From contig CM082590.2 in assembly GCA_040954595.2 (NCBI GenBank), positions 5,952,001-6,016,000 on the forward strand: 64,000 nucleotides of DNA, read 5' to 3'. The DNA comes from Balanoglossus misakiensis (Eukaryota > Animalia > Hemichordata). A model generated the notes under the pieces. It was given only the letters and a program-made list of their open reading frames with translations. It was not told the origin of the DNA and searched no databases. Below, piece after piece: positions 9,689 to 56,443 of the stretch; the stretch's first letter is position 1; every line of letters begins with the position of its first letter. The position numbers were made by a program, and so were the translations under genes.

Positions 9689-9724
<36 letters not shown>

Positions 9725-21337: not shown

Positions 21338-21345
21338 TCTATACA

Positions 21346-24449: not shown

Positions 24450-24716
24450 AGGGACAAAATCTCTCTCGCTGCATTTTTCTCCATTAGTTATGTTTGATAC
24501 AAGACACCGTTTATGTTATTCTACATGTGGATATATAGTGAATCAACGTTCAACCACACACAACTTCCATCCCGTTTGTAGGATATGAGAGTAAAAATCT
24601 TGCATAAAATGAATAAAAGATAGAGACCAATTATTCATTTTGGTGATTTATTTCACTCTCGTATCTTCAGCGGGATGGAAGTTGTGTGTGGTTGAATGTT
24701 GATTCACTTTGTCCCT
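24450..24716. mobile_element. MITE family A
   Basis: TTAA|AGGGACAAAA...CTTTGTCCCT|TTAA. Confidence 0.8.
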
Positions 24717-26592: not shown

Positions 26593-26600
26593 TGACGTCA
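26593..26600. promoter_or_regulatory. Palindromic CRE/ATF site
   Basis: Perfect TGACGTCA 65 bp upstream of the kappaB site. Confidence 0.4.
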
Positions 26601-26664: not shown

Positions 26665-26676
26665 GGGGTTTTCCCC
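26665..26676. promoter_or_regulatory. NF-kappaB (kappaB) site
   Basis: GGGGTTTTCCCC fits GGGRNNYYCC, about 145 bp upstream of the ANK-ROCO ATG. Confidence 0.5.
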
Positions 26677-26820: not shown

Positions 26821-26850
26821 ATGGCTTCCGGAGACTATAAAAATCCACAG
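26821..26850 (+). CDS. ANK-ROCO exon 1 (MASGDYKNPQ)
   Basis: Strong Kozak context AACCATGG and a perfect CAG|GTAAGT donor, phase 0, matching exon 2. The exon is short, so this call is less certain. Confidence 0.65.
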
Positions 26851-29800
26851 GTAAGTAAATGTTAACTGTAGTAACTGACATTTCACACCAAATGCAACGA
26901 TGTCTGACAGTGACGCGTACGACGGCTGTTTTTATGAGTGGTTTATATTTTGTTTGTTTTTGGGGGGACTGAGGCCTGTTGTTCAAAATTTCTCCCTTCA
27001 ACCCTATGCACGTAAATTTAACCAGACATTTTGGTCACTAAACATATGACGGTTATGTTTAGACTTGTGGCGCTAGTCGGTGCCTAATAGGTGTTTTTAT
27101 TTTTCAACGGGTCAGCTTGCCCTACACACGGAATATATAGAAACTTCTAGTGTTTGTGTGTATTGCTAGATAGTGTATTCATAACTATGTAAATACCCGG
27201 TTGACAAAAACGCCACATTGATCACGATGTTTTCCGTTCACTCCAACTGGCGAAATCCCAGTCTCTATTGTATGGAGCGATATTTGACGATACTGAAGTA
27301 AGACTCGGATTCGGTTTCGGATTCGGGTTGGAGAGACTGAAAGTAGTTTAGCATTTTCGGGCAACCATCGCGGTTAGGCATCTGCAGTACGAGTATGAAC
27401 ATAACTCTGTAAAAATATGAATATATTTGATCAAACTCTCTCGACATGTTATGTATGATATTTTTGGTACCAAAACACTGTTTTTTTTTCACATAGGAAA
27501 TTGTTAAATACATATTTTATTATCGAAAAACATACTTCAATGGTAGAAAGATAATATTTTGTAATTTTCGGTTTGAATAAACATTTTTTGGGTGAGAAAA
27601 TGTCATACATAATAAGTACAGATTAAATCAAATTTATTCGTGTTTTAGTAAAGTAATTTTCATTCTTGTACTGCAGATGCCTAACCGATGCCCGAAAATG
27701 CTAAACTACTTTCAGTCTCTCCAACCCGAATCTGAAACCGAATCCGAAACTGAATCCGAAACCGAATCCGAGTCTTACTTCAGTATCGTATGTGTCTATA
27801 TATGGGGTAGTCTCGGTTACCCAGACGCCTTTGCTTCTTCCGATGCTCTCCAGAAAAGGGTCTGGGGAAATGCTATTGAAAGCTTTGTAAAACAAAATGG
27901 CCGATGTCAGGATTTTGATCATCGCCTGATTGGCTGAGCTGTCAGTATGACCCGGGTCACTGACTCTCGACAATGTGTGATTATTTGTCGTATCTTCATA
28001 TCAAGAGACCGGTACTTGTTGGTTCATGCGAAAGGCAAAAGGCGTCCTCTGTTAGCATTGTTGGAGAAATTATATGAAATATCTTTGGTAGACGATTGTC
28101 GAAATTATTGCAGTGACCCGGGTCATACTGACAGCTCAGCCAATCAGGCGATGATCAAAATCCTGACATCGGCCATTTTGTTTTACAAAGCTTTCAATAG
28201 TATTTCCCCAGACCCTTTTCTGGAGAGCATCGGAAGAGCAAAGGCGTCTGGGTAACCGAGACTATATATGGGGCAGTCAGATTGACGCCATATCAAATGA
28301 TGATAACCTTTGACCCGAAATGAGTTCATTCAAGGTGACGCAGGTATGGTGTTGGTCATAAGGGGTCGTGGATAATCATTAATTCCCCATGAGCTGACTC
28401 TATCTTCTCCGTATCCTTTGCCGACAGATGACACGACAGGTTGATGATACATGTGTGCATACCCACGAGTAAGCTTTTTAAAATGAACCAATCGAACAGT
28501 TCATTACTGACTGTGGGTTGTTGATTCCATGTTCTGACCAACAGGACGACATCCCAAATCTGTAGACTATAACAATAGAGCATCTGGACAGTGAATTGAC
28601 CATTACCTTGTTCACGTTTCTTTTATGGAAATCATGCAAGCCCTATCAAACAGTCAAAAATGCTTCTTGGGAAGCACATCAGCGACCAGGTATACAAAGC
28701 TGTCACACGACCCACACACTACTACAGCTACACAATAACTTGCTCACACAGTTTGGACAAACATTCATATGGTGATACTTTCATTGCATTTGTTCACCGT
28801 TCTCTTGAGACCGTTGCCTTATCATGAGTCCATGGGCTCATCCGGGCATTTTCCAGTACATGTATCTATATTTTGGTGTAAGCCGTGTACGTTTATGTGT
28901 AATTAGAATACTTTACCATATCATCGATGCACATGGTTTACACAATGTGATGTGACAATTTAAGTATTATTTCTTGGTGTTTGTGATTTTGTTTGTTCAT
29001 ATTCAAAGATCAGTTCAAATTCTGAAGAATTTTATATACAACGCAATATTTAAAAAACAACAATTGTATGTTTCACTGAATGTTATAGGTTCTCATTAAA
29101 GCCGCTGAGAATGGTGATGTTGCAAGGATTCGGTCGTTGATAGCTGATGGATACGACGTCAATGCAAAGGGTGCATTTCTTGGCAGGGTAAGTATTTGCA
29201 CTGCCTCACTCAGCATTTCACACGTGCAACCCAGTCACACAGGTATCGAATCTGAAGCGGCAAACGATTTGACCTTGACTCACTGATGAACACAAACCTT
29301 TCCTGTATTTGATATACAAGCTTATATGCATTTGAAATAAAAAACATGTGTCAAAAATAAAACTTGTTTCATCCTTTGTTTCTCTTATAGCTATTTGAGG
29401 TTAGAAAGAGAAATTTGAAGCCGAAACGAATAAGAAAATAATGTTGGCTGTAACGTCCATGTATCCGTATATTGTGATCAGTAACAGTCTGTGGCGCAGT
29501 TGTTGACAAATCCAGATCGATGTTTGCAAATGTCATAGAAAATAAAAGTGTTAACAAATAATTGAAACCCCAAAAGCGACACAATAGAGATTAAAAATCC
29601 CGCGTCGTAAGTCAATCCGGAATTCAGGTGAATATGGTCATGGAAAAGAGTGCCGTTGATTGCCCTTATAAACAAAAAGTGCGGATTTCTTTAGTCTGTG
29701 GTGTTTGTATTACAAGTGTATTCTTCAGGCGTGATTTGAATCTTTGAGGTTGGTCAATTGTTGATTGATTGTAATATTTATTTCCTCTGGCTCTTCGATG

Positions 29801-32800
29801 GATATCTTTGCTGTTTAAATTACTTGAGTGAATAAACACACATGTTTTGAGATGAAAGTGTTACTGTACCTCAATGGACATAGAACAATGCCAGAGTAAG
29901 GACATAGTGCTTGTCTATGGGGAATACAGGGAGAATATCAGAGTCGTGACAAGGCCAGGCTGAAATGTTTCATTTGCGGACACCCGATGAATATGTGGAA
30001 TCTGTGTCATTGCAGGCTGGAGAGTTGCCATTTGGACGAAATCTTCATCTGTGGAGGAAGCTAGTGATTACATGTGCCCCATGCATTATGTGCCATTGTT
30101 AGCTTAGAGACCGTCTCAGATTGTCACAAAACTAGCTGGTTAAATCGGATGTAGAATTAGGCGGTGTCTTTACTATGGCTGATTCTTGGCTTTACTGTTC
30201 GGAAAGGGACCGTCCACCCGAGAACGGCCAAGACAGAGAACAGAACAGCCAAAATGATCACCATAGGTAAATACAACGCCTAACTCTACATCTGATTTCA
30301 ATCAGATTGGTCACATAAATTCAACAAAGTTCTTATGTTTATTAGAAGTGCGAATTCAACTTGTTTAGTGAATTTCACTTTCACACTTATTTGCGCGACC
30401 ACAATTTTCCTTTTATGTTTTTTGTTAAATTCAGTGAACCAGACATATGTGATTTCAGTTCCCTTCTATGGATACTACAAACGCTTTTTTAAAAAAAGAC
30501 AAATTCGAGAGAAATGTCCAGACTGGTTTACACAATTCTTTTTCTGATGTTTCCTAGCAACATTAAATAATTATAACATTGAAGTAACGTAAGTACCAAC
30601 GCTAGGTCCATAGCAGGCTATACCTAAATATTAACTTACATCAACAGAGAAACAGGGGATTGTGTGTGTCGGGTGTGATTGAAAATTTCAAAATGTCCCA
30701 TGCCAATGTTGGGTTCATAGCGGGCCAGACTTCAACTTACATCAACAGAGAAACACGAGGGATTGTATATGTCTGGTGTATCACGTCCGCCATGTTTATC
30801 TGTTAGAGTACTTGGTGTGATTGAAAATTTAAACATATCAATGTAATTTATTAAACGATATTAAGACCTGTTGCACCTATGAGTCTGCATAAACATGTAT
30901 AGTGCGCTACATTATATTAGAATTTTATAGTGTTACACTTGTTAGAAAAATCTATAGGACATGTTATAAATGTTCTCTGAAACAATAGAGTGTTTTGGTC
31001 TGAAACAACTATAGATGCTACACACATTTAACTCATAATATCAGTCAACACTTAAAGTTACAAATCGATTTCAGTGAAATTATAGCCATGTCACCTTACA
31101 AGTCCAACATTGGAACATAGCTTGTGTTTATTTTAATTCAAATGAATTTGTCAATTTCAGGCTGGAGCCACAGCATTGCATGCTGCAGCCAACAAAAATA
31201 AACTGGAAGCGGCACAAGTGTTGATCGACCATGGAGCTGACGTCAATGCTAAGGATGAGGTAAGTGGCTTTACATGTTCACTCACCAATAGCCCGAATGG
31301 CCAAAAAGGTGACTCTGTACTTATATTTTGTAGCGTTGACAACCTTCGGGATGTCAATCACGTAATAAATGTTACTGCAATAAACCGACACACATAATAG
31401 GATTATGAAGAATATGAAAGAGTTTGAGGGAGAGTTTTTGGACCGTGGCTATACCTGCGGCCAAGTTAAATTCTTATCTCTTTTGAGACCATCCAATTCA
31501 CTTTTGAATATCATACCACTATAAAGCAATATTTTATTATAAGGTCAAGTATTTCGAGAGGTTGGGATCAGGGTGTTCATATCGAAATTCATAATTCTAT
31601 TTTTCGATAAATAATCTACCAATAGTTAACTTTTTGACCGGAAAGTTAGGGACCTAACCATGAATTATTGCTACATGCACGATGACACATTTATTTTATA
31701 TTTAAACAAACTGTAGTGTAATAGCTGTCAGTAACAACGGCGAAGCGAAATAAAGCTTTGAGAATAAATAATTGTAAATTGTAGGGGTGCCATGTATCCT
31801 GCACAACAGGCCGGGGGGGGGGGGGTTCTCCTATAGGAATGTGTACGGGTATGTGCCACCCAGAAGCGTCACTTTTCAACGGAAAAATCCCCAAACTTGG
31901 GATGACTTTTCAACCGAAAATCTACAAAGTGGGATTCTTTCATAAACCGTCATCATGTAGTTACCGTTATGAAACTGACTCTAAAGAAACGCCAAACCTC
32001 GCCACCCGTCGACGCCGCGCACAGGCACACGAAGTGTGTCACAAGTGGTGTCGTTGTCTCCGATGCTCGATTCTTGTGGCTTCACCGCTCGTGGCGCACT
32101 TCGTGTGGCTAAGCCATCGTTGGACAGAGAGAGAGGTCTGGCTGGCGAGACTTTAAAAAGTTGTCTGGCTGAAGTCCACCATAATCATTTGAATGTCAAT
32201 AGTGGTTCTGCATATTTCTTACCTTTCATTCATGATTGCCATTCTTTGATTGGCTAATTCCAATGCTCTTTTAAGGGGTAATGAAACTGCTGTCTAGGCT
32301 TTTATAAAATTTAGATCATTGTCAGTTTAAGGGTATTGTACAGAGGGCATCTTCAAATGAAAACAACACACGCACGTATCATAAATCTTAAATAAAGAAT
32401 ACCTGTGGTGTTAATGTACTCTCAAAGGACACTGCCCTATCACCACATCATGCATTCATGTTCATTTCTTGGGGGACTGGGATGTATCCTACTATTAATT
32501 AATCCCCCCAAAAAAACACAAAAACAACAACAACAACAACAACAACAAAGTTTCGGCAAAACATGTTGTGCCATCTCAAAAATGAATGTTTCAGAATGTG
32601 TGTTACAGTGCATGCTTAATGAAACATTGCGTGTTCCATTTTACGCTTATAGTCAGGGATTTTCAGTGACACCTTTTTGTTGTATTCCCACAGGGTGGTC
32701 GGGTACCGTTACACTATGCAGCAGGGAATGGCGATGGTGACGTGGTGAGACTTCTACTGCAATCCAATGCCAGCATCGATGTGCAGACCAACGTAAGTTA

Positions 32801-35481
32801 CTGTAATCACACAAATTCTATTCTACACTCACACATCAGTTGACATGTTTTATTATCAATAACACACATTTTTGAACATAGGTAAATAAAAATAAATAAT
32901 TAACGTCTATCCCTCTGCCTTATTCCCAACAACCCAGACGTTACAATATAATATTACCAATGACAGCCTCTCTTGTTAATTATGGATTCTTAAAAAAATT
33001 AATATTTCAATGTTTTTTTTCTTTAAAAGCACAGTTTGTCATGATTTAAAAAGAGAAATTAATTTGTTTGTTTCGTTGAATGTGAGATCAAGATCAGCAG
33101 ATTTATATGTAAATATTAGTGTGTATCATAATATAGGACCAATAAACGAGAGCCCCTCTTACTGATAACAGCATGAAAGAAATCCTCTATTCCAGTAATG
33201 ACCAATAAATATATAGCCTGCAACAGCGCATTAAATTATACAAACTGGTTATAAAACTTCAAACGGAAGCTCTCGTCACGCTGCGCATGTGTGCATTGTT
33301 TGTTGGAAAAAAAATTGCCCACAAATCCCTGAAATTCTATTTTTAGAATTATTTTTTTGAATGAAGGAAGCCGCCCACTGTAGCGTAGACTGGGCATGAT
33401 AGCAACTGAACATCCTACAAGTCGTGGCAACTGCAGTGGGGATTGCGCTGGTATAGGAGGACGTGTATCATCCATGCAGAGCGCTCGACGCGACAACCAC
33501 TCAAGCTAGAGAAGCCAGCCTTGCTAAGACTCAAATCTGCGTTAACCCGGCCCTGCATTGCATTGAGCTTGGCACGTCGGTTAGATTCCGCTGATAAACC
33601 TTATCACACTGTTGTCCGATTCCAAGTATATTTAGTCAGTCACCTTGTTGTAGAGATGACTGCAACAGGTGGTACAGGCGCTTGAATCGCGCCATTGTTG
33701 ACACGAGTATATCAACTAAGCCCTATACATGTATAGTGTGACCTACGCCTAACTGTTTATCTGTTCACAAATACTCAATATAAGCCTATAAAAAGTTTCG
33801 CGATGTTGGCTAAACAGCCGTGGACAATTGCCATAACGCGGTTGGTCGATGTCTTGAAAAATCATTCTGTATTTTGCATAAAGGCAAGGAAAAATTTCAG
33901 GGGGATTAAACCTGACAGTTTATTTCTCTGTGTTTGTACAAAGACATGAAATCATCTAGTGTAGGCGTTTCCGGGTACAGTTTGTTTTTACCGAAAAGGG
34001 CGTATTATGCAAATGAAGGGGGGAGTTAATGAAAAACGTAGATTTTTGTAAAGCAAAACATGTTCCACATCTTCCGATGCACGATGAATGGAATTAAAGT
34101 ATGTGCAAATTTCTGAAAATCCAACCTTTTCAGAGTTTGGTTCAGTAGTTGTGGAAATGCAGCTGTTCCGCCGGAGGATATGCTAATTCCGCGCATTGCT
34201 GGCTGCTAGGAAGCCCTACAAGTTCACCAATAATATCGCAATGTTCCTGTCAGAACTTGGCTTGCCACGTATTGCTGTCACCATGCGTTATATTAAATAT
34301 ATTAAATTTTATATTAAATACTTTCCCACCACGTGTAGGTAATATTGAAATCACACCGTCCCCGAAGGACTGTGATGAAACATAATCTGTTTCCTGATGT
34401 TTGCCTGTCACTTGCCTCCTCCGATGTTATTTGTCAAAATCCCGAAACGAATTTTCTGCTTGGCGGCCGTGTATGAGTCTACATGAACATGCGGTCATAA
34501 CTCTGGCTTTGCTGGAGCATTTGCCTATTTCAGTTCATGCCGAGTGCTGAGTTCTGTGTTGGGTTGTGGCGTCTGTTTCTGTGCGTACATGAATGTGTGT
34601 TCCTAGCCCTGCGTACTGGTCTGTGAGTTCCCGTCGGTAGGCGACCGGTGGAGGCCGTGTAACGCAAGCTAACAATGGGGAAGTGGTCGACTTCTATTGG
34701 ACGTAACGCTAACGCTAACGCTAACGCTATTTACTACTGTATAATTAAACTAGTTTTAAAATAGTTGCCATGGCCACCCTTTAACGTTAGCAGATATTTA
34801 GTGGCTCTCTATCGGAATTTGTCTATTACACATAAACACCCATCCGTGAGCCACTCGATATGAAAATTTGGGTTACGCCGCCCTCACTATAAGCGGCAGT
34901 CCTACTGACAAAATGATGCTCGTGCTCGTACTATCACTATCGTAATGCCGTCTCTTGTCAGTCTCAGCCCCACGAGAGCTTAAAGTTTAACACAAGAAAA
35001 CCATGAAAATTGTCCCGACTGTCACATTTCGATACTGAAGTAAATTCCAACCAGAGGCGTGGTTTGCATACAGTAGATTTGTGAAGATTCCTCCGTTCAT
35101 AAAACGAGATGAAACAGTTTTCACATGTATAGAAATGATTTAACACATAGCATTTCCTTGTAGAAATAGCTACCGTGTGTTCCATCTGTTTGTTTAGTGT
35201 ATAAGAATATCATTTTCTGAGCAGTACAGTCGGTGGGTTAAAGCAGTGGTACTCTTGAAGTCTATCTAATATTCCACTTTGTTTAATAACCTCTTATAAT
35301 GTTCGATTTCGCGTATTTGAATTGACACCAAATATCAGTTCGGATTATCTCAAACTAGAGAGATTTGAGTGTGCACACAATGCCACTCGCGTAATAGTTA
35401 CCTGTGGTTGCATGGCGATCGCAGTCATGTCATATCTGTACATGCATCGCTGTAAACTTACAGTGGACAGTGATTGTTTGT

Positions 35482-35522
<41 letters not shown>

Positions 35523-35543
35523 GATGAAATGATGATGATGATT

Positions 35544-35575
<32 letters not shown>

Positions 35576-38500
35576 AAAAATTTTTGTTAAAACACAATGA
35601 AGCATTTCTTGCTGTTGTTTGTCGATGTTGTAAATAACTGTAAAAGAGATCGCCCAACGTTGTATGGTCTCCCAGCGTCACTCCTGAGTACAATAAAGAG
35701 AAGGGTGGAATCGAGGTGCCCTGCTCCAGTCTAAATCCTTCAAGGTCCTGTAAAAACACCCCATCAACGACCGATCGATTGAAATGTGCCATCATAGGCA
35801 TTGAATATTTTCGTAAAGGGATACTGAGATATTAGACTTTGACATTAGAAATGGCCACATCAAAAGAAACTGTTGTTCGGGAAGGCTAAAATCCTAAGAT
35901 TTATCTTACGGTCCAATACTATTATAGACAGATTAAGCCGCAGGACACTTTTCCCCATAGTGATGAAATATCCGGCATTTACACATAAGGCGAATTTATG
36001 TAGCAATATTCTAAACTACCAATCCGAAACAATATTGCTTCTCTGATGTAAATGTTGTTTTGCACATAAGCCATTGATCATCACAACTGTCATGGTGTCC
36101 CATTGAAAAGTTTATGACTAGTGATATGAAAGGTATTGTAACAATAAATAACAAAACCAACAGTGTTTTTTAAATTTAATTTGCATAATTACGTACATCT
36201 TCAAAGAAACCCGAAAAGTATCTGTTTTGCTGATTACGATACATAAAAAATCCACTTTCATTAACTAGTACTGCAGTGTTGATGTCTGATATGTCTTTGT
36301 ATTTTACAGGATGGTGACACACCTATACATCGGGCAGCAGAGTGGGGTCAGGAAGGAGCAGCACTGTTATTACTGAAAGCCAAATGCTCTGTCAACATAC
36401 AAAACAAGGTAAGTTAGAACCAGCCTCGGTGCAGAAGGTGATGTAAGCGTTATAGATTGAGTTTTTTTGGTGGCTTTACTTTGGGGACAAGTTTTCGTTT
36501 GAAGGTATTATGTGTGTTATAATGTGCGTGTGTTGTGCGTGTGGCGCAGAAACGTTTGATGATTAGAAAAAACAATTTATTGGGGTCGGATCGTATGTTC
36601 AATTTGCATTCTTCCCACCCGCACCCGTTGAAGTTATTTTGAAAAATATGCCTGAAATGTCTGATAACAAAGGGAAATGTTTTTATTTTGACGATATTGA
36701 CGAGGAAGTAATTTGAGAATCGCGTAAGTTTAGGGTGAAGCAGCAGCGGTTCATTGTTGTGATAAGTTTGCATCGCGAGCACTTTCTGTAAACGGTGAGG
36801 TAGATCCCTCTCGCGGTTTACACAGTGAAGCGTGGGGCTACCCGTCACGTTTGCTTTATTCTCCTGTCTATACAGTCGCTGGCCGAGAATTTCTGGGGAG
36901 AGTGGAAACATTACTAATTTCGTTTGGTGATTTCCTGTCATTTAGTGGAAACTGTGACCACAGTGGAACTGTCTGGGCAGTGTGGTCCTTAGCTGTAGTA
37001 TTAAGCTCAACTCCCTTTTCTCTCTTCTGACGAGCGATTTGATATGTTGCGGATTTTACCCGAAATTTGCTTGAAATATGGCGGTCCGGGGCGACTTTTT
37101 AATTTGCATTGTGGACACAACTGACTCTTCCTGTTTAAGTTTCGCACGTACGCAAGAATTTTGTCTCTTTCTGGAAATATTCACGTACATTCGCGAAATT
37201 CCAACGTTTATCACCCCGTTTTCCGTTGATATTGTCGGGTACATCAGGTGGATGGTCATTGGCCGTGAAAGTACATAAGATTATTCTGACTCCCCAACAT
37301 ACCGGCTGTCTGTGTGGAAATGACTTTTGTTTTGTATCTATTCAATAGCGTTGAAGTTGGAGACAATATAGCTTTAAACATCCAAACCACGTGTACAGTA
37401 TATACCAGCAGGGTTTTGTCATTTTATTACTGTGTTTTTTTTTCATAAATGGGTAATTCGGTAACTTTTGACACTTTAGAAGAAATTTGTGAAATGCTCC
37501 AAATATTTGTCGGTCGGGCCTATTTAATTTATTTTTCTATTGATCTAATGACGGTGTATAGAGTTAAGAGTGATAACATTTAGATTCTTGAACCGGAAAA
37601 CTGAATCCAAAATTGTGTCTAAAGCAAATTTCAATGTCGTGAGAACAGGAACCTTTAGATGTTGCATTATTGAATACTACTGAAGCTGTGGAATCGGTTA
37701 TCAATGGTTGAACAGTGTTATTCTAGGATTGCCTCATTATGCAAACTTTGTTAAAATTTCACAATGACTGACAATACTGCATGGTCACACCAAAATGGTG
37801 TCAATAGACTCAAAGCCTGGCGCTGGGTTAATTTTAAGGCACAATAACTGATGAACCGCATTCGCTTCTTTCACCTCATGTTCCCTTTTCAGTTAAAATT
37901 GTCAAAATTTGTTTCAAATGTGGAATATGAAACCTGTATTGAGTGTGTTGGACGAAATTTATCACGGATTCTGTTGGACATTGTTTCACTGTTGTTGTTT
38001 TTATCAGCCTCAATGTCACTTCGAGGAAATAGTATGCTGACATTGTTTGGAGTCATCAACATCCTATTCCAGGGACAAGACCATCCATGTTAAAGCTGAC
38101 ACCTCCATAACATGTGAACGAAACGAAATTCCTTCCTACTTTGATAACGACACAGATGTTAAACACAATATTGCTCATGTGACTTCCCTAATGGTAGAGG
38201 ACCCACTGCAGCTTAAGATTGGGCTCTCCAATCAAAGAATCACGGGTCCCAACCTTTCCACAGTGGTGGTGTCCGTGTTCTTGAGCCAGGAGATATCCTT
38301 CTAGTTGCTTCTCCCAACACAGGAGTAAAAGTGAAGGACTGCAGAGATTATGATTAGTAGTGTGTTATTGCGTTACTTGTGGCTGCCGTGTAGGTACGCT
38401 GACATTGTTGCTCTATAGTCAAGTGATATTAGATCTGGAAACACAACACTCGCCATATATATATCGTCACAGAGCCCTTCGGGTTCTTTCATTCTGCTAG

Positions 38501-41500: not shown

Positions 41501-44500
41501 CCGAGTGCTGAGTTCTGTGTTGGGTTGTGTCGTATGTTTGTGTGTACCGATGCATTAATTAGATGACTTTGGTTGCGCTAAAGGTTCAGAGCCAGCAGAT
41601 GCAGTTTTCAACACATTACACACTCGGTGCGTTGCATCCGTCATTGGAGCGTGCAAGAGTCCATCCAGACGGCTGAATGCTGTTCCCTCCACCCCTTGCA
41701 TGATATTTCTGGACCGCTTCTGCATCGCCTTTTGTCTCAAGTCGGCCATCGATTTGTCTATGGTATTTCCCCAGACCCTCTTTCTGGCTGAAGTCCAGCA
41801 TAATCATTAGAATGTCAATAGTGGTTCCGCATATTTTTTACCTTTGATTCATAATTGGCGTTCTTCTATTGGCTAATTCCAATGCTCTTATAAGGGGTAA
41901 TGAAACTGCTGTCTGGGCTTTTATAATATTTAGATCATTGTCAGTTAGAGGTATTGTACAGAGGGCGTCTTCAAATGAAAACTGCAAACGCGCGTATCAT
42001 AAATCTCAAGTAATAGGAAACCTGTGATGTTAATGTACCCAAAAGGACACTGCCCTATCACCACATAATGCATTCATGTCCATTACGTGGGGGACTGGGA
42101 TGTATCCTACTTTTAATTTATCCCCCTCCCCGCCCCCCAAAAGTTTCGGCAAAACATGTTGTACCATCTCAAAAAATGAATGTTTCAGAATGTGTGTAAC
42201 AGTGCATGCTTAATGAAACATTGCGTGTTCCATTATACACTTATAGTCAGGGATTTTCAGTGACACATTTTTGTTGTATTCCCATAGATTGGTAGGGCAC
42301 CCTTACACTGGGCAGCATTGGAAGGCCATGGTGACATTGTGAGACTTCTACTGCAATCCAATGCCAGCATCGATGTGCAGGATACTGTAAGTTAATGTAA
42401 TCACACAAATTCTATTCTATACTCACACATCAGTTGACACGTTTTTATTATATTTAAATCATTGTCAGTTTGAGGTATTGTACAGAGGGCATCTTCAAAT
42501 GAAAACAACACACGCGTGTATCATAAATCTCAAGTAGAAGAATACCTGTGATGTTAATGTACCCTCAAAGGACAGAGCCCTATCACCACATCATGCATTC
42601 ATGTCCATTACGTGGGGGACTGGGATGTATCCTACTATTAATTAACCCTCCCCCCCCCAAAAAAAAAAAAAAAAAAAAACTTTCGGCAAAACATGTTGTG
42701 CCATCTCACAAATGAATGTTTCAGAATGTGTGTAGCAGTGCATGCTTAAAGGTATACAGTCACCTCCAACTTACATACGCCCATATATGGCTGAAATGAC
42801 GTATTTGGGCGTTCTAAAGAACTTATGGTTGCGCTCTTTCTTTCGCGTGTGCCACCCACTGAAAATCTGTGATTGGCTAGATCTCAATTTGCCATTGATG
42901 ACATGAGTATATCGCGTAATCCCTATATAGTGTGACCTAGGCTATCAGTTCACGATTCAAACAATGCTCAATCCAAATTGAAGGCTTAAATAACCGTAGA
43001 AACTTGCCATGAGGTCGGCCTATGGCTTGATAAATTATTATGTATTTTGCATTTATTAGGATGGGTAAAATTTCAGGGGGATTAAACCGGGCAGTTTCTT
43101 TCTCTGTGTTTCTAAGAAGACATGAAATCATCTAGTGTAGGTGTTTCCGGGTACAGTTTGTTGTTACCGTAAAGGGCGTATTATACAAATGGGCGGAAGC
43201 TAGTGAAAAGCATAGATTTTTAAAAACATTCCACCTCTTCCGTTGCATGAGGAAAGTGGAATTAAACTTAGTGCAAATTTCTGAAAATAATAACTTTTTC
43301 GGAGATGGGTCTTCAGTTGATAAGTCTAGATTGCTGGCTGCTGGGAAGCCGTAAAATTCACCAGTGCGATCGCAATGTTCATGTCAGAACTTGGCTTGCC
43401 TTTTACCACGTGTTGTCAAAACCCTGAAATAAACTTTCTGTTTGGCAGCCATACTTAAAAGCCAATGCAAACTTGACATTCAGATGTGTATGAGTATACA
43501 TGTACATACGGTCATAAATCTGGCTTCGCTGGAGCATTTGCTGCTTTCAGTTCATGCCGAGTGCTGAGTTCTGTGTTGGGTTGTGTCGTATGTTTGTGTG
43601 TACCGATGCATTAATTACTTAGATGACTTTGGTTGGGCTAAAGGTTCAGAGCGTGCAGATGCAGTTTTCAACACATTCGGTGCGTTGCATCCGTCATTTG
43701 AGCGTGCAAGAGTCCATCGAGACGGTTGAACGCTGTTCCCTTCACCCCTTGCATGATATTTCTGGATATTTCTTGCCTTTGCCACGTGTTGCTGTGGTCA
43801 TGCGTACATTTTATTTCAAATACTTTCCCACCACATGTTGTCGAAATTTATGACTGTGTAGGTAATGTTGAAAATCACACTGTCCCCGTGTGTCATGAGA
43901 CATTATCTGTTTCCTGATGTTTGCCTGTCACTTGCCTCCTCCGATGTTATTTGTCAAAACCCTCAAACGAATTTCTGTTTGGCGGCCGTAAAACCAATGC
44001 AAACTTTACATTCAAATGTGTATGAGTATTCATGTACATACGGTCATCCCTTTGGCTTTGCTGGAGCAATTTCTTCGTTCAATTCATGCCGAGTGCTGAG
44101 TTCTGTGTTGGGTTGTGTTGTATGTGTCTGTGCGTAGGTAATGTGTGTTCCTAGCCCTGCGTACAAGTCTGTGTGTTCCCGGCGTTACATGGACGATGGA
44201 GTTAATTACACATTAACACCCATCTGAGCTTTTATCACAAAATGCACAATCGATATGAAAATGTTTGTTATGCCGCCCCACTATAAGGGCATTGCACCAT
44301 GGGTGCGACTTCGCTCGAGGATCAAAACGCCTCTAATGCGACAGTCCCACTGATGATATGATGCTTGTACCATGACGTTTGCTCACCGAGTCAAACTATC
44401 ACTTTCGTAATGTCGTCTCATATCAGTCCTTCTGACACCACCCTCTCTCGCACAAAACATGTACTGTCACCATTATACTAGTAGTTGAAACTGTACTGTC

Positions 44501-47215
44501 AGTGAAACTCGCTTAATTATTATCCATAGCAGTCATTTTTTTTCTTTTGCAGAGATTAGTGAGGCATTTTGGGAAATGTGTTGATCAAAGTAGACACACT
44601 CGCGCGCAATCTCAAAACCACGAGAACTCACCTTCAATTTTTAACACTAGAAAACCATAAAAATTGAACTGTCACATTCCGATACTCAAATAAATTCTAA
44701 CCAGAGGCATGTTTTGCAAATAGTAGATTTGTGAAGATTCTATTGTACATAAAACGTGATGAAGCAGTTTTAATCAAATCATAGCAATGGGCTTAAAATC
44801 TTTTCTCCACCTTACAGTACGAAAAGACGCCTATGGATTATGCAGACGACAGAAGAGTCAAATCCCTGCTGAAGGTAATATTTCTCATAACTACAAGTAA
44901 CTGTCATATTCAAAAGGAACACTATTACTTGTAATACAACCATCAATGAGACAGAGTAATTCATATCCAGAACAAAAACCGAAAGAAACAATTTGGAGAG
45001 TGGAGATTAGTTTTTACCCCTTTGTACGCTCTAATTTAAATTTCAAAGTGAAACCACTGCTGTGGCTATATATTTGTTTAATTTACATTAATTGGTTGTT
45101 CTAAAATACTGTACTCCTTACTTTTGGGTATGTAATAGGAACTTGTGGAATTGTTGACAATACCAACAATTTTGTTGTTCCTATCATGTAACTGTTACCA
45201 ATAATCATTGTTCTAATTCAGTGTTTCATCCACAGTTCATAATCACCGCACTTTGACATGTGCATAACAAACCAGAATTTAACTAATGATTTTTTTTTCT
45301 AATATAACATGGATTATACTATTCACTTGACATTTCCATTACATATTATAATACAAGATTTGTAACATGTGCAGCATATATAACTTTCTTATAATCTGTG
45401 TGACTAACACAACTGCGAATTGAGATAGGTGCAGAGTGGCCTCCCACAAATGTTAACCATTATTAAACACTACAAGATTAAAACTGATGAACGACTTTCA
45501 TTTTGATAAACTTGGAATACATTGCATATATCTAAATGAACTAATCTGTTATATGTATGATGACTAGGCTGTCGTAGCCAAATTTTGTCATTAATGCCAG
45601 TGTAGTGTTCCTTTGATATCACAGTTCATTTTGACAATATTTGGCAAGTCTATTCACAATGATTTCTGTGCTTTTTGTTGACATCAGGCCGAACAGAGGA
45701 AGAAGAAATTCAGTGTTTTGATGAGAGAACCAGGCATCACCCGAAATAGTAGCAGAGTTCATGTCTGTGGATTTGGTGGTGTTGGAAAGACAACCCTTGT
45801 GAAATCTTTGCAACGGGTAACAATAATTTTCATATCTGTACTTATATCTTTGTCAAACATTGTATGGTCACACTGTTTTCCACTTCGACTGTTTCATCGA
45901 TGTTTCAAGTTTGTTATTTATTTATTTATTGCAGTGATACTATGAAATTATTCCTTTATTCACTTTTTTCTGAATATTGTAATGTACAGCCTACATAAAC
46001 AGTTCACCAAACTATTGTCATTATTATCTATTCAACATTATCATGATGTCCAGGTGAAATAGTTTGCTTAAATGATACAGGTGGTGTTACTCGCCCATCA
46101 GAGTCACTGTCAACACAAACGCTTACTGCAGTTTTGTGTGTACCACTTTCATACAGGGCTTCTGGCAAGCGTATTTCACTCGACGAGCTGAAGAATACCC
46201 GCCTCTACCGGACAAGACTGGGTACACACCAACACCAGGTATTGATGTAAAAACTATCGACATACCAAAGGTTGGAGAATACATTGTCATGGATTTTGCT
46301 GGACAGTGTGAGTACTACGTGACACACAACATGTTCCTGAGAGCAGAAGATGCTGTGTTTATGCTTCTGTTTAAAATAACAGAAATGGGGAAAGATGACC
46401 CAAAACATTTGAAGAAGCCTATAGAGATGTTGGAACAAGCACTGAAAGAGGTGAGACATGACCCTTCACACACAAACACACACACACACACACACACACA
46501 AACACCGGAACGAAATAGAAACTGTAAAGTATGTCCAATTTAACCTACTACATGCATGTCCACATATGGAACTAGTCATTTGAGAACGGCCACACACAAA
46601 CAAACAAACACCAACACACACACACACCGGAATGAAATCTACTTTTGAACCTACTATGTCCAAATATAGAACTAGTCATTTGAGGAGGGGTTGGGAGGTG
46701 GGGGTGGGGTGGGTGGTCCACATATGCAATGCCTAACAGATACAGACAGTTATAATTTCTTGCATGTTTTTGTAAGCTCTGAACTTAGTATGGTTTATGT
46801 GTGGCATTACAGTGCCACTATTATGAAATATTCTGCCAATTGCACCCCCAAGACAATCTTAATGTAGTGGAAGCGAAGGTCACATGTGAATTTTCTTAAA
46901 TGACTGGACGGTAGTGTATAGAAATCAATCCATACCTGGAGTGACGATTCTGAAATCAATTAAACTATTTCGAGCGAAAACCCTCAACACATGTAAAATG
47001 TGCCACAACACTTAAATATTCCCACAAATCAATACCTGTGTTATATTTAAACTAGCCCATTAGCTATAAAATTATGTTTGCATTACACAAAACAATTAAT
47101 TAATTAATTAATTAATTAATTAATTAATTAATTATTAATTAATTAATTATTAACATTGATTGATTTATTGATTTATTGATTGATTAAATTATTGATTAAT
47201 TGATTGATTAAATTT

Positions 47216-47266
<51 letters not shown>

Positions 47267-48580
47267 CAATTGTGAAATTATATCATTGTGATAATTTTCA
47301 GACCAACATATGGGCCCAGTTCTTCAAAGGCATGATAAGCAGCATACTAAAGAGTGATGATGCTTCGTCTCGGAGTGAAGACACCAAACCAACTGTGATA
47401 TTGATCGCAAGTAGAGCTGATATGTTGGATGAATCTCAACAAGAGAGTGGTAAGTAGATTACTTTGATTGCAGTTACAACATGCATATACTGTTAAACAC
47501 ACTAGTACATGCACACGCACAATCTAGCATGTACATGTAAAACCAATATTAATTTGGACAAATCTGTCTCTGCATCCAAATCTTGATGGTATTTAAGTAG
47601 CAGTTCATTGTAAGGAGATGCACGATAGTGTTTTTTTTTTTTTACAAAAGATCTGACATAAATTACTTAAAATCTTTTAGCCAGAAGGGGCATTTCCCTC
47701 CTACTTTGAATACTAGTTAAATACCGACACGCAATTTTTTCTATTTCATAGGAATAGTGACATGCCCATAAGTTCACGCAGTTTACATGTTTACATTCTG
47801 CACGTACATCCTTAAATGGGTACTGATACTTAAATATCAGTACCCATATTTTTATTTCATGTTTTCACACAGTCTACGAGTTAACGTTTTGCATGTACAT
47901 CCGTAATTACCATAACCCATTTTTTATGTTTTCTAATATAGCCAAACGGGTTGTAGAAGAGGTACGGGAAGAATTGAAGAAGAAATTTGGCAATTATTTG
48001 AATATCGTGGATGAGACAGTTTTGTTAAATTGTCATGATTCTCAAAGTGAAGCAATGGGCAGACTACGTGTGATCTTACGTGGGTTCAAGGTGAGTTTAA
48101 CATAAATGCATAACTATTTATATTAACATTTTGATTTGAAAATCCGTCTAGTCAGAAAATGATAATACTACAACAAATGTTGTATGTATGTATGTATGTA
48201 TGTATGTATGTATGTATGTATGTATGTATGTATGTATGTATGTATGTATGTATGTATGTATGTGTGTGCATGTGTGCGTGTATGTATGTATGTATGTATG
48301 TATGTATGTATGTATGTATGTATGTATGTATGTATGTATGTATGTATGTATGTATGTATGTATGTATGTATGTATGTATGTATGTATGTGCATGTGTGTG
48401 TATGTATGTATGTATGTATGTATGTATGTATGTATGTATGTATGTATGTATGTATGTATGTATGTATGTATGTATGTATGTATGTGTGTGTGTGCATTTG
48501 TATGTATGTATGTATGTATGTATGTATGTATGTATGTATGTATGTATGTATGTATGTATGTATGTATGTATGTATGTATG

Positions 48581-48611
<31 letters not shown>

Positions 48612-48758
48612 TTGTATGTATGTATGTATGTATGTATGTATGTATGTATGTATGTATGTATGTATGTATGTATGTATGTATGTATGTATGTATGTATGTA
48701 TGTATGTATGTATGTATGTATGTATGTGTGTGTGTGCATGTGTGTGTATGTATGTATG

Positions 48759-48789
<31 letters not shown>

Positions 48790-49058
48790 TTGTATGTATG
48801 TATGTATGTATGTATGTATGTATGTATGTATGTATGTATGTATGTATGTATGTATGTATGTATGTATGTATGTATGTATGTATGTATGTGTGTGTGTGCA
48901 TGTGTGTGTATGTATGTATGTATGTATGTATGTATGTATGTATGTATGTATGTATGTATGTATGTATGTATGTATGTATGTATGTATGTATGTGTGTGTG
49001 CATGTGTGTGTATGTATGTATGTATGTATGTATGTATGTATGTATGTATGTATGTATG

Positions 49059-49092
<34 letters not shown>

Positions 49093-50812
49093 TCGATTTG
49101 GAATGTATGGTCTTTTGTGCGGGATAATGGAGGATTTACAAGCATTGTCCTCTTATACAATTATCTATCGTTTATTGCATAATTACAGAAGGAAGAAAGT
49201 ATACCAAACCTATGTGCTAAAATTGCTGACAAGAAGCAGAGGTGGCTAAAAAACAAGAAGTTCCCTGTTCTCTACTGGACGAAATATGTGGAAAGAGTTC
49301 AGGAGATTGATAAATATGTTCAAGACCCATTTCTGAGGATAGCTACATCGTACCTGGAAAGCATTGGCGAGGTAACACCATCAATTCATCCACTGATCAG
49401 ACCATATATCTATGGCCTTCAACCATCATTCATTCATTCAGTCAGTCAGTCAGTCAGTCAGTCAGTCATCTTGCCTTCTCATCTCATTGATCAATACATT
49501 ATTTCTTTCAATCAACTTTTGTTAACATCTGAAGTTTATTTCATTGTCTTCTTGTTTGTTGCAGATTATCTTTGTCAAGAATCCACTTGGTGATGATATC
49601 ATTGTTCTTGATGGTCAATGGTTGTGTTCAGAAATCTTAGGTCGACTGATGGCAACTGATATATTCGTTCAATACAGCGACAAACTGCTGAAAAATCAGA
49701 AGTTCTATCACGAGAAAGAAATTGCTCGAGTATTCAGTGGTTACGGTGATACCAACTTAGTCATGGCTCTTCTCAAGCATTTTGAGCTTCTCCATGAAGA
49801 TGAGTCCAATCCAAAATCTTACATCATCCCTGGACTCTTGGAAGATAAAATGCCATCAAATCAATGGGAATCGGATCCCACTAAGCATCACTATTTTGGT
49901 AGAAGAATCGAATGCCATGATGAAACAGACAGCTTCACACCAGGTTTGTTCCCACGCCTACAGACCAGGCTCTGCCGTCACTTTGAGGAAATGGGTTACC
50001 CTCCCAGTGGAATATGGAAGAATGGTATCAAAGTCTGCCGCATCGTAGAAGGATTGGTGTACATGACAGATGGATGGACGGCAATCCACACCTGTGTCAG
50101 AGCAGAAAAGGGAGAAGACATAGGGGCATGTTACCAGTTACTGGAAATGGTGACCAATGATATCTATGACGTCATAGAGATCTGCTGTCCGGGTATCGAG
50201 GTCGACACCCATATTCTCAGCGCCCACTCGCTGCGAATTCACAGCAACCCAGAGAATGTAAGATTCTACCCAATGCAGAAAATCACAGAAGCTGAGCAGA
50301 ATGGAAGTGGAGTGTATGATGAGCAAATAGGTCAAGAAGAAGCTGTCACTGACTTGCTCTGTGCTGGATATGATACCACATTCCTCCGTAAATATGGATA
50401 TGAAAGTGATGTCAAGTGGATGCTGAAGGATGCCCTCAAGATATTTTCTAATATCATGGATATCATCCGGTTCTCCGGCAATGACTACAGGGCTATGGCA
50501 GACTTGATGGGGATCCCTCAAATGGAGGTGGCTTCATGGCAACACAGTGCATCGATTCAATCTCCCACACAACATGCTTTATCTGTTTGGTCCAAGGGCT
50601 GTGGAGGACAACAACATGCAGGCCAACAGCCAACTGCAGATAACAAATTCTGTAAGAGCAATTTTTCCAACCTGGTTAAAATTCTTGAGCAAGAAAGTTG
50701 TGATGTCTACGCTGCCAGAGAAGAAATACATGAGATGTTCCGAAAACTTGGTGTGTCAGCTGATCATCATGGTGTTGAAGGTGACATGGCTCATCTACAT
50801 CTAACGTCCTGA
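26821..50812 (+). CDS. Ankyrin-Roc-COR-death domain protein (DAPK1-like ROCO lacking kinase); join(26821-26850,29089-29187,31161-31259,32694-32792,36310-36408,39809-39907,42288-42386,44818-44874,45688-45816,46157-46450,47302-47449,47942-48090,49189-49371,49565-50812), about 943 aa
   Basis: Phases are consistent and the total of 2832 nt is 944 codons. Six ANK repeats plus a C-cap; Roc P-loop GFGGVGKT, TPGID, DFAGQ, ILIASRAD; COR motifs YLESIGE, VLDGQWLC, PGLFPRLQ, IWKNG; C-terminal death-like domain (GNDYRAMADLMG...SPTQHALSVW...NFSNLVKILEQ). Confidence 0.88.
27287..27789. mobile_element. Non-autonomous element with about 110-bp TIRs
   Basis: ACGATACTGAAGTAAGACTCGG... is the reverse complement of ...CCGAGTCTTACTTCAGTATCGT. 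Confidence 0.7.
27808..28264. mobile_element. Non-autonomous DNA transposon, about 155-bp TIRs, TAG...CTA termini, 9-bp TSD
   Basis: TATATGGGG is repeated at 27799-27807 and 28265-28273; the TIRs are near-perfect. Confidence 0.85.
29089..29187 (+). CDS. ANK-ROCO exon 2, ankyrin repeat 1 (N-cap like)
   Basis: 99 nt; VLIKAAENGDVARIRSLIADGYDVNAKGAFLGR; AG/GTAAGT boundaries. Confidence 0.88.
31161..31259 (+). CDS. ANK-ROCO exon 3, ankyrin repeat 2
   Basis: 99 nt; AGATALHAAANKNKLEAAQVLIDHGADVNAKDE. Confidence 0.93.
32164..32856 (+). repeat. Ankyrin-exon cassette copy 1 (intron-exon 4-intron)
   Basis: Directly repeated at 41783-42451. Confidence 0.9.
32694..32792 (+). CDS. ANK-ROCO exon 4, ankyrin repeat 3
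   Basis: 99 nt; GGRVPLHYAAGNGDGDVVRLLLQSNASIDVQTN. Confidence 0.9.
33780..34600 (+). repeat. Intronic repeat R (copies at about 40683-41550, 43050-43600 and 43770-44150)
   Basis: Shared blocks, e.g. GGGGATTAAACCTGACAG...ATGAAATCATCTAGTGTAGG and TTCATGCCGAGTGCTGAGTTCTGTGTTGGGTTGTG. Confidence 0.8.
35483..35575. repeat. (TTG)n(ATG)n microsatellite
   Basis: Direct reading. Confidence 0.95.
36310..36408 (+). CDS. ANK-ROCO exon 5, ankyrin repeat 4
   Basis: 99 nt; DGDTPIHRAAEWGQEGAALLLLKAKCSVNIQNK. Confidence 0.9.
39809..39907 (+). CDS. ANK-ROCO exon 6, ankyrin repeat 5 (GC donor)
   Basis: 99 nt; DGNTPLHRATRKDRVNIVRLLLEYKADVNIQNK; donor position reads GCAAGT. Confidence 0.82.
41783..42451 (+). 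repeat. Ankyrin-exon cassette copy 2 (intron-exon 7-intron)
   Basis: About 95% identical to copy 1 in the exon-flanking intron sequence. Confidence 0.9.
42288..42386 (+). CDS. ANK-ROCO exon 7, ankyrin repeat 6 (paralog of exon 4)
   Basis: 99 nt; IGRAPLHWAALEGHGDIVRLLLQSNASIDVQDT. Confidence 0.9.
42452..42749 (+). repeat. Cassette copy 3, upstream-intron part only, no exon
   Basis: Matches about 32310-32619; stops at a TTAA where a family B MITE begins. Confidence 0.85.
44818..44874 (+). CDS. ANK-ROCO exon 8, ankyrin C-cap
   Basis: YEKTPMDYADDRRVKSLLK; acceptor CTTACAG, donor AAG|GTAATA. Confidence 0.82.
45688..45816 (+). CDS. ANK-ROCO exon 9, Roc P-loop
   Basis: RVHVCGFGGVGKTTLVKSL (GxxxxGKT). 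Confidence 0.92.
46157..46450 (+). CDS. ANK-ROCO exon 10, Roc switch I/II
   Basis: TPTPGIDV and MDFAGQCEYYVTHNMFL, matching the Roc consensus. Confidence 0.93.
47095..47266. repeat. (ATTA)n/(GATT)n microsatellite
   Basis: Direct reading. Confidence 0.9.
47302..47449 (+). CDS. ANK-ROCO exon 11, Roc G4
   Basis: WAQFFK...PTVILIASRAD; donor G|GTAAGT, phase 1. Confidence 0.88.
47942..48090 (+). CDS. ANK-ROCO exon 12, end of Roc
   Basis: KFGNYLNIVDETVLLNCHDSQSEAMGRLR; donor AAG|GTGAGT. Confidence 0.88.
48181..49093. repeat. (TATG)n microsatellite, about 0.9 kb, in ROCO intron 12
   Basis: Direct reading; it is the source of the spurious MYVC/HTYI ORFs. Confidence 0.98.
49189..49371 (+). CDS. ANK-ROCO exon 13, start of COR
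   Basis: IPNLC...FPVLYWTKYVERV...LRIATSYLESIGE. Confidence 0.88.
49565..50812 (+). CDS. ANK-ROCO exon 14, COR plus death-like domain
   Basis: Long ORF 49544-50812 with DAPK-like COR motifs; death-like domain at about 50430-50745. Confidence 0.93.
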   Translation: MIFVKNPLGDDIIVLDGQWLCSEILGRLMATDIFVQYSDKLLKNQKFYHEKEIARVFSGYGDTNLVMALLKHFELLHEDESNPKSYIIPGLLEDKMPSNQWESDPTKHHYFGRRIECHDETDSFTPGLFPRLQTRLCRHFEEMGYPPSGIWKNGIKVCRIVEGLVYMTDGWTAIHTCVRAEKGEDIGACYQLLEMVTNDIYDVIEICCPGIEVDTHILSAHSLRIHSNPENVRFYPMQKITEAEQNGSGVYDEQIGQEEAVTDLLCAGYDTTFLRKYGYESDVKWMLKDALKIFSNIMDIIRFSGNDYRAMADLMGIPQMEVASWQHSASIQSPTQHALSVWSKGCGGQQHAGQQPTADNKFCKSNFSNLVKILEQESCDVYAAREEIHEMFRKLGVSADHHGVEGDMAHLHLTS

Positions 50813-55009: not shown

Positions 55010-56443
55010 TTAACACGACCCCGGGCCTACTATACACCAATCAAGAAACATTTACACGTCTACAGGTTAATAAATGCGCCCAGAAGTTTTACTTTCAACT
55101 CGGTAATTTGAGTTTTCAATTTAATTTTATGTGCAGGCTGCAAGAGCAAGACTAAGTTAAGAAATCACTTATATATTCATGCAATTATGTTCTACTGCAA
55201 GTTTTGCGTAAATTTTCCAAGGAACTAGCCCCTTCCGTCGCTTGAAATATCATCAACACTGCACTCTGACCTAACCACTATCGACTGCTTTTGATATTTA
55301 CACCGCCATCTGAGCAGACTGGCCCGTCGCTATAACGACGGAACCGAGCTGAAAAACAAGCAACATGAAAAGACCTATGTTGACCCAAGGTTGAACCAGC
55401 ACTGACGCTAGTGCCCCGAACCAGATCTCTAACTCAAGTTGCTAGAGACCCAGAACGCTGAAGTTAGCTTTCCAAAGGCACCTGCGACAACACTTAGTCC
55501 AAGCTCAAGCAACCACAGACCACACCAAAAACCAGTCTAGTCTAGTCCTACAGTACATCATAACACACTTCCCTGGGCGGTAGCTAGTTAGGGCGGCCAG
55601 CGCGGCAGTCAACAACGTGACAGCAGGCAAAGGCTTAATTCATTCACGAATAATTCATCTGGTTCGTTTATACACCAATCTTGAACGCACTCGGCAAATG
55701 TCTGCGGTCGGACGGAACCACACTCTATACCGAAAAACAGCCAAAATTAGTTCACTCGAGCAAATGTGGCCTAGACATTGTCGCGCGCCAGATTGTCTCG
55801 TACTACTTCTACGCATGCTCAGGCAATGACATCCGGGAACGCTGGGTAGGAGGGCTCGTTCAATGTGGTAGTTTCGATCGCTTTGCGCGCCATTGCTATA
55901 TTCACACAAAACTATTCCATCTAGAAGAAGAGCCACTTAAAACATTTATGTAGAACCTCTTTGACCAATTTACTCAAAAGTGTTATCGGTGAAGCATTGT
56001 GGATTGTCATTCTGTAGTCGGTTAATGCATGTATAGTGAAGGGACGGTGGAGGCAGCTTGGATTGCACCATTATCTGGTGGGTTGCGCCGGATTCTGTGA
56101 TAGGGTAAGTGCGCGAGTCGAAGAGTTCCTGCCCAGCTACCATGTGGGCAGTGGTGAGGCTTATCCCTGGGGAGGCATGGCAGCTTACGTAAGGTCGCGT
56201 GTTGATGACATGACCCAAGGTCATTTATCATCCACCGAGAGCGCATGTGCAGCTACAGTGTACATACGGAGAAAGTACGGTGTTTTGGTGTGGGAGGCAC
56301 ATATAATTAGATATTTTACTACACTTCGTGAAAATTAACTCAGGAAAGTAAATATAACAGTTTGCCTTTGTATCAATTACGGTACTGTGACAGGAGTGTC
56401 TGGCATGCTCCGATAGAAATTATGGAATGTTTGGTTAAAGTAA

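Follow-up and report, generated by a model that had tools for sequence, protein, structure and literature searches.

The 64-kb window of the Balanoglossus misakiensis genome analysed here (64,000 nt of contig CM082590.2) carries on its plus strand a 24-kb gene, at 26821-50812, whose 14 exons join into 2832 nt encoding 943 amino acids and a stop codon, with no internal stop. The exon model (Table 1) was built from the DNA only, using splice signals and homology; every acceptor is AG, and the donors are GT in 12 cases and GC in one. From the N- to the C-terminus, the predicted protein consists of six ankyrin (ANK) repeats, a Roc GTPase domain, a COR domain, and a death domain, and it is kinase-less. 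The gene lies between a ZIP zinc-transporter gene upstream, which ends at ~21338, and repeat-rich DNA downstream. The start codon at 26821, described in the initial annotation as a Kozak ATG, has A at -3 and G at +4 and in-frame stops 15 nt upstream, and a homologous N-terminus starts the annotated Ptychodera paralogues P0003, P0005, and P0057. A pseudogene or artefact was considered and rejected, given the open frame across 14 exons and the end-to-end alignment with annotated relatives. No paralogue of the gene was found within the 64-kb window.

Table 1. Exons, duplicated segments, and presumed promoter motifs of the ANK-Roc-COR-death gene; positions count from the first letter of the window
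Feature	Position	Strand	Evidence or remark
Palindromic CRE-like motif, presumed proximal promoter	26593..26600	.	5 such sites in window
NF-kB-consensus site, ~150 nt upstream of ATG	26665..26674	+	Consensus match, weak lead
Exon 1, coding part (start codon + 10 aa)	26821..26850	+	Homologous N-termini P0003, P0005, P0057
Exon 2: ANK1, degenerate N-cap, 99 nt, phase 0-0	29089..29187	+	Pfam Ank E 0.17
Exon 3: ANK2, 99 nt	31161..31259	+	Pfam Ank E 5.9e-10
Duplicated cassette copy A (intron flank, ANK3 exon, intron flank)	32164..32856	+	86% to 41783-42451, 696 columns
Exon 4: ANK3, 99 nt, within cassette copy A	32694..32792	+	Pfam Ank E 8.5e-9
Exon 5: ANK4, 99 nt	36310..36408	+	Pfam Ank E 6e-7
Exon 6: ANK5, 99 nt, then GC donor	39809..39907	+	Pfam Ank E 3.2e-11
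Duplicated cassette copy B (intron flank, ANK6 exon, intron flank)	41783..42451	+	Pairs with copy A
Exon 7: ANK6, 99 nt, 24/33 aa identical to ANK3	42288..42386	+	Ank E 1.3e-9
Third copy of upstream flank, exon-less	42443-42749		Follows copy B
Exon 8: partial repeat / C-cap, 57 nt	44818..44874	+	Alignment with P0004, P0024
Exon 9: Roc N-terminus, P-loop (G1)	45688..45816	+	79% to P0024 over 39 aa
Exon 10: Roc switch I (G2), switch II (G3)	46157..46450	+	Pfam Roc E 0.0015
Exon 11: Roc G4-like motif	47302..47449	+	Motif and alignment
Exon 12: Roc end	47942..48090	+	Alignment
Exon 13: COR-A start	49189..49371	+	Alignment with relatives bearing Pfam COR-A
Exon 14: remaining COR-A, COR-B (~49904-50317), death domain, stop	49565..50812	+	Pfam, fold
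Death domain, with low-confidence loop insertion	50375..50758	+	Predicted structure

The domain content given in the initial annotation, namely ANK repeats with a cap, an intact Roc GTPase, COR, and a C-terminal death-like domain, was recovered in full. Each of the six ANK exons is exactly 99 nt long, in phase 0-0, and encodes one ankyrin repeat. Five of these repeats reach the Pfam Ank cut-off (E 3e-11 to 6e-7). The degenerate first one (best E 0.08-0.17) takes the role of an N-cap, and the 57-nt exon supplies a partial C-cap. The Roc domain contains GFGGVGKT (G1, of the form GxxxxGKT), TPGID (G2), DFAGQ (G3), and a G4-like ASRAD of the non-canonical type found in DAPK. Scanned exon by exon, only COR-B (E 4e-7) passes its Pfam cut-off, and Roc (E 0.0015), COR-A (E 0.0077), and Death (E 0.0026) stay below theirs, in part because these domains are split over exons. 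An AlphaFold model of exon 14 (predicted local distance difference test, pLDDT, 83) matches the COR domains of Chlorobium Roco, LRRK1, and LRRK2 (Foldseek E 3e-7 to 4e-6). A weak match to NB-ARC is confined to the P-loop exon (E 0.0047, below cut-off), and the domain is Roc-COR. The ROCO hallmark, a Roc GTPase domain followed directly by COR, is therefore present, and both sequence and fold identify the gene product as a ROCO protein.

For the C-terminal domain modelled on its own (pLDDT 85), Foldseek gave no match at E<=0.001, and the best ten rows were all death domains. With VIA-align, the top 12 matches to the predicted structure are likewise all death domains, with MyD88 at Z 11.1, a root-mean-square deviation of 2.4, and 97 aligned residues; this Z falls below the program's caution line of 13 for helical bundles, and the fold agrees with the Pfam, Foldseek, and ESM Atlas results. 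The best ESM Atlas feature match (0.95) is a cluster with Pfam Death in 98% of its members. A helical death fold is supported by these models, and the domain is conserved among the hemichordate paralogues (12 invariant columns in 20 rows).

Separation from DAPK1

That the gene is kinase-less was borne out. No kinase was detected in the 64-kb window by motif scans, by tblastn queries taken from eight DAPK N-terminal regions, or by a search of 3442 six-frame fragments with a hidden Markov model of the DAPK kinase (best kinase-region E 0.85 and 1.1). A DAPK1-type N-terminal Ser/Thr kinase with its calmodulin-regulatory region was likewise not found there, and a control search with DAPK ANK regions recovered four of the six ANK exons at E<=0.01. 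The initial annotation had set the absent kinase against the kinase-CaM-ANK-Roc-COR-DD order of DAPK1. The absence holds, but it is not diagnostic by itself, because four of the five ambulacrarian true-DAPK1 models found are annotated without a kinase as well; it is the tree that separates the families. We note that many invertebrate true-DAPK1 models (P0214, P0212, P0213, P0070, P0069, P0107, P0216) begin just before the ANK repeats and have no kinase, and that the DAPK1 models from Antedon and Octopus include it. For the kinase-less models there are three explanations: an isoform from a conserved internal promoter, a split of the gene, or faulty annotation.

Hemichordate DAPK1 is a separate gene, which was found in Glandiceps (P0214) with an echinoderm DAPK-clade protein as the query. 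Over Roc-COR, our gene is 25.5% identical to this Glandiceps DAPK1 versus 56% to a Ptychodera family member. In an IQ-TREE analysis of 52 Roc-COR rows that we selected, with one long branch removed and under LG+G4 without a mixture model, the gene falls inside a hemichordate clade (100/100), and the DAPK orthologues form a clade of their own that excludes it (100/100). A tree in which the family is joined with hemichordate DAPK1 is rejected by the approximately unbiased (AU) test (p-AU 2e-28). Group labels were given by tree position rather than by source name for P0027, P0029, P0030, P0037, P0044, P0053, and P0062, and also for P0109, and the groups were named after the result of a FastTree run was known (133 rows, the number left once short-coverage rows and four skipped rows had been dropped). 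On these alignments, the hemichordate ANK-Roc-COR-death family is distinct from DAPK1. The two share the order of ANK, Roc, COR, and death domains and a non-canonical G4 (ATHAD/GTHxD in DAPK), but the gene described here has no kinase or calmodulin-regulatory region, lies in a separate clade, and belongs to a multi-copy family whose members vary in ANK number and in part contain near-identical internal repeats.

Family expansion, exchanged effectors, and a duplicated ankyrin exon

A search with exon 14 returned 13 relatives, all from hemichordates, 36-57% identical, and none with a Pfam kinase; most are named 'death-associated protein kinase 1-like', the very label that the initial annotation expected automated pipelines to apply. 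At 90% identity, the matches found form 18 clusters in Ptychodera flava, five in Saccoglossus, and two in Glandiceps, with ANK numbers from 0 to 18, in line with the expanded, variable family that had been proposed. Eight of the 18 Ptychodera clusters sit on a contig or contigs of one identical size. By tree and by expansion, the gene is not the single-copy DAPK1 orthologue that had been named beforehand as the counter-case. A Roc-COR-death profile matched 6134 representatives at E<=0.001; of the 138 new matches, Pfam scans covered 59 and name look-ups 30. Kinase catalytic motifs occur in six of the 165 sequences examined locally, and all six belong to the DAPK clade.

The nearest groups are amphioxus and echinoderm clades, joined to the hemichordates at 86/88. 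These relatives keep ANK-Roc-COR and have swapped the C-terminal effector: CARD (P0025, P0029, P0030, P0037, P0048), double CARD, CARD with death (P0034), tandem death (P0044, P0054), death with trypsin (P0050), a GT4-conflict glycosyltransferase in Branchiostoma belcheri (P0036), CARD with a caspase-like domain without the catalytic motifs searched (P0035), and, in Asterias, death with CARD and a caspase whose SHG and QACRG motifs are intact (P0165, P0166). The fusion of a dimerising GTPase to an intact caspase would amount to a proximity-activation design, and this starfish member is the clearest hint that the module may drive proximity activation. No effector-fused member was found among the hemichordate relatives scanned. 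The Asterias proteins P0165 and P0166 carry ANK, Roc, COR, death, CARD, and caspase in one chain, an arrangement conserved between two Asterias species.

Outside the DAPK1 clade, kinase-less ANK-Roc-COR-death proteins of vertebrates also form a clade (100/100), with lungfish, bowfin, coelacanth, newt, and frog; bichir joins it in the FastTree run. The members recorded are P0058, P0061, P0190, P0191, P0152, and P0086. This clade is possibly a fifth vertebrate ROCO gene beyond LRRK1, LRRK2, DAPK1, and MFHAS1, and its grouping with the invertebrate family is neither supported nor rejected (68/62). Three further sequences (P0091, P0097, P0075) combine ANK-Roc-COR with a CHB_HEX_C-like domain, one of them also with TIR; since P0091 comes from a marine microbial eukaryote transcriptome collection, the ANK-Roc-COR design exists outside animals.

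Within the array, the ANK3 and ANK6 exons lie in two copies of one cassette (Table 1), and the pair reads as a recent exon duplication from it. The exons themselves differ at 19 of 99 nt (81% alike) and the flanks at 44 of 566 (92%; Fisher p 0.0012), so that the coding part is the more divergent. Nine residues differ. Eleven of the 21 nt in seven codons of the predicted binding face are changed versus eight of 78 elsewhere; seven of the 11 changed codons differ by 2-3 nt, and 14 consecutive codons, 18-31, are identical. The positions randomised in designed ankyrin repeat proteins (DARPins) lie on the concave face according to PMC8229355 and PMC6796971. Four of six such positions, as assumed here, are changed between ANK3 and ANK6 (p 0.034). 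Other duplicated intron blocks (66-92% alike) occur in the window only inside the ANK array. Repeat pairs identical at 20 or more of 33 residues were found in at least seven of 15 hemichordate and at least two of seven amphioxus proteins and in none of 14 DAPK-clade proteins, counts that are lower bounds because the repeat finder missed many repeats. Fungal NLRs include ANK repeats of high internal conservation, and near-identical internal repeats are a mark of their fast-evolving sensors (PMC13449251). We take the substitution pattern as a possible sign of binding-face diversification of the ANK array.

The ANK5 exon is followed by the GC donor (window 39907-39909). Because such a donor is weak, skipping of this exon could be favoured.

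Proposed function and parallels to known systems

The gene product is probably an intracellular immune or danger sensor, NLR-like but with a Roco GTPase as its base. The concave face of the ankyrin array would bind a trigger, upon which the nucleotide and dimer state of the Roc-COR GTPase would switch, a step suggested by the behaviour of studied ROCOs, which act as nucleotide-dependent dimers (PMC4104024, PMC11378527). The death domains, brought together in this way, would then attract death-domain adaptors that lead to NF-kB or caspase signalling. We infer the immune role from the effector content of the family and its evolutionary pattern. The comparison with NLRs drawn in the initial annotation stands for the layout, as repeats, an NTPase, and a death fold are combined in one chain, with lineage expansion and repeat turnover. 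It fails for the order of the parts and for the switch: animal NLRs have the effector N-terminal and the repeats C-terminal, which is reversed here, and a Roc GTPase takes the place of a NACHT/NB-ARC STAND ATPase, so that COR-based dimers rather than wheels are to be expected. The gene product is not an NLR by membership; the design works like one.

More tentatively, and with less assurance than for the sensor role alone, we propose that the gene belongs to an overlooked class of deuterostome intracellular innate receptors parallel to NLRs. Such receptors would combine an exon-duplicated, diversifying ankyrin sensor, a Roc-COR dimer switch, and an exchangeable effector slot holding a death domain, CARD, active caspase, protease, or glycosyltransferase. 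The class would have expanded in acorn worms, amphioxus, and echinoderms. In bichir, bowfin, coelacanth, lungfish, and amphibians it would survive as an unrecognised fifth ROCO gene, and the label 'DAPK1-like' would conceal it.

Several points weigh against the sensor reading. The selection signal comes from one exon pair, for which the Nei-Gojobori method (NG86) gives nonsynonymous and synonymous rates, dN and dS, of 0.23 and 0.21, a ratio of ~1 and not above 1. The list of binding-face positions is assumed from DARPin design, and binding-face positions of ankyrin repeats are naturally variable. Gene conversion may account for the similarity of the close flanks, because the more distant intron blocks are only 66-92% alike. 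Near-identical repeats are found in none of six echinoderm and none of five vertebrate members. Beyond the six exons, tblastn and blastn revealed no spare or decayed ANK exons in the window, and exon shuffling of the Ectocarpus type, cited in the initial annotation, found no counterpart there in the form of spare repeat exons in introns. The death domain is below the Pfam cut-off here and in 13 scanned hemichordate relatives, and may therefore have diverged from standard adaptors. The Ptychodera counts, from searches that were not exhaustive, may include split models and haplotype copies, and the support for the link between hemichordates, echinoderms, and amphioxus is moderate at 86/88.

A ratio of ~1 in the single pair tested would also suit a non-immune ROCO scaffold, acting in stress, trafficking, regeneration, or developmental cell death and evolving by neutral birth-and-death, unequal crossing-over, and relaxed constraint. 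Ankyrin genes in general often have symmetric 99-nt ANK exons, the conserved DAPK clade also contains kinase-less ANK-Roc-COR-death proteins, and the vertebrate kinase-less clade is apparently low in copy number and without near-identical repeats. Brown-algal ROCOs, moreover, respond to abiotic stress as well (PMC11378527). The swapped effectors, however, namely CARD, caspase, trypsin, and GT4-conflict, belong to death and conflict systems (PMC8195603), and the exon changes are clustered, with multiple hits in most changed codons beside the long unchanged run. We regard the scaffold explanation as rather unlikely, although it is the strongest competitor of an immune or danger sensor. Less likely still, and in our view improbable, is a decoy or inhibitor that dampens effector-bearing ROCOs or death-domain adaptors by pairing with them via COR or its death domain. 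A decoy would suit the lack of any catalytic effector in the protein and its divergent death domain, which contains an insertion and scores below the Pfam threshold; yet every G-motif is intact, the C-terminal domain is kept among the hemichordate paralogues, and no effector-fused hemichordate member that it could inhibit was found. That the gene is instead the DAPK1 orthologue or a kinase-less isoform of it, with kinase exons missed or outside the window, is very hard to credit: the domain order is that of the C-terminal three quarters of DAPK1 and most ambulacrarian DAPK1 models also appear kinase-less, but the Roc-COR identities and the AU test largely refute it, and no kinase signal occurs in the window, where a whole same-strand ZIP gene ends 5.5 kb upstream.

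The sensor reading has precedents at greater distance. Repeat-Roc-COR proteins are candidate receptors in brown algae, and the LRR-ROCO proteins described there (Teng et al. 2024, PMC11378527) resemble our gene in their N-terminal repeats, one per symmetric exon, in their Roc-COR core and expansion, and in exon duplication and concave-face variation, the last represented here by one exon pair at dN/dS ~1. They differ in that the algal LRR exons are 72 nt in phase 2 and the ANK exons here 99 nt in phase 0, and in that our gene has a C-terminal death domain and six repeat exons, with no spare exons found in the window. Trichoplax (Civiero et al. 2014, PMC4104024) has expanded kinase-less animal ROCOs with CARD or death domains, but with TPR or LRR repeats; 'ankyrin' has 0 occurrences in the accessible text, and a deuterostome ANK family is not described there. 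Similar in architecture are the predicted bacterial AP-GTPase (Roc-COR) counter-invader systems (Kaur et al. 2021, PMC8195603), in which a repeat sensor and Roc-COR are followed by a variable C-terminal effector (caspase, trypsin, TIR, or GT4), effectors that recur in the amphioxus and echinoderm relatives of our gene. Those systems are prokaryotic, use an LRR sensor, and are known from prediction only. DAP kinase is named as their animal counterpart, and the deuterostome ANK family is unmentioned in the portion seen. ROCOs bearing TIR, LRR, or kinase domains, not the ANK family, are reported from Aplysia and anemones (PMC9334734, PMC5094078).

No paper describing a deuterostome ANK-Roc-COR family apart from DAPK1 was found in a literature that comprised neither subscription papers nor several supplements and figures; outside it lie the Marin 2006-2008 ROCO surveys, Zambounis 2012, and, for PMC11378527 and PMC8195603, the supplements and figures, among them Figure 2 of the former with some forty domain combinations in animals, and ANK-Roc-COR-death or -CARD proteins may be listed there. 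Term look-ups gave no relevant mention in PMC6321704, PMC2575513, PMC13012124, or PMC3196919, in the main text and three supplementary files of an amphioxus poly(I:C) study (PMC5752451), or in seven supplementary files of a hemichordate single-cell study (PMC13554239). The idea of Roco proteins as immune receptors is already in print for brown algae (PMC11378527) and bacteria (PMC8195603), alongside the Trichoplax catalogue (PMC4104024). The new elements are that the gene stands apart from DAPK1, that its family spans deuterostomes and exchanges its effectors, and that the ANK3/ANK6 pair hints at diversification of the binding face; immune function is a well-motivated prediction. If the sensor reading is true, deuterostome invertebrate immune repertoires, which are usually counted by NACHT, TIR, and SRCR domains, miss a whole receptor class, and the notion of ROCO GTPases as original invader-sensing switches becomes testable in animals. 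With its intact caspase, the starfish member would then allow activation by Roc-COR to be read out directly, a matter relevant to the use of this module in LRRK2 and DAPK1. Should the function prove different, the tree still puts right a widespread mis-annotation and suggests one more ROCO lineage in vertebrates.

Presumed promoter and surroundings

Upstream of the start codon lie an NF-kB-consensus site and a putative motif that we take to be a cAMP response element (CRE); the two constitute a weak lead only. The window contains 11 matches to the NF-kB consensus versus 4.5 expected, and six of 100 shuffles reach 11, so the enrichment is not significant. The CpG observed/expected ratio rises modestly at 26.0-28.0 kb (0.75-1.17 versus a median of 0.67).

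The neighbouring ZIP gene is a multi-exon gene on the same strand (4455-21338) with His-rich segments, three exons of which match Pfam Zip. A short interspersed element is present in many copies and both orientations over ~2100-24700, in the ZIP introns and downstream, including a palindromic pair at 24537-24708. On the 3' side of the ANK-Roc-COR-death gene, repeated blocks and a tandem duplication occur at 52669-52899, 56629-56869, 58025-58265, and ~56000-59340; the open reading frames tested among these downstream blocks gave no Pfam match. Inside the gene, a TGTA-type microsatellite of ~900 nt (~48180-49095) lies in the intron that separates the last Roc exon from the first COR exon. Intron 1 holds two inverted-repeat elements that resemble small transposons (27305-27747 and 27808-28264), one of which is self-palindromic and the other of which has 170-nt arms that are 95% identical.

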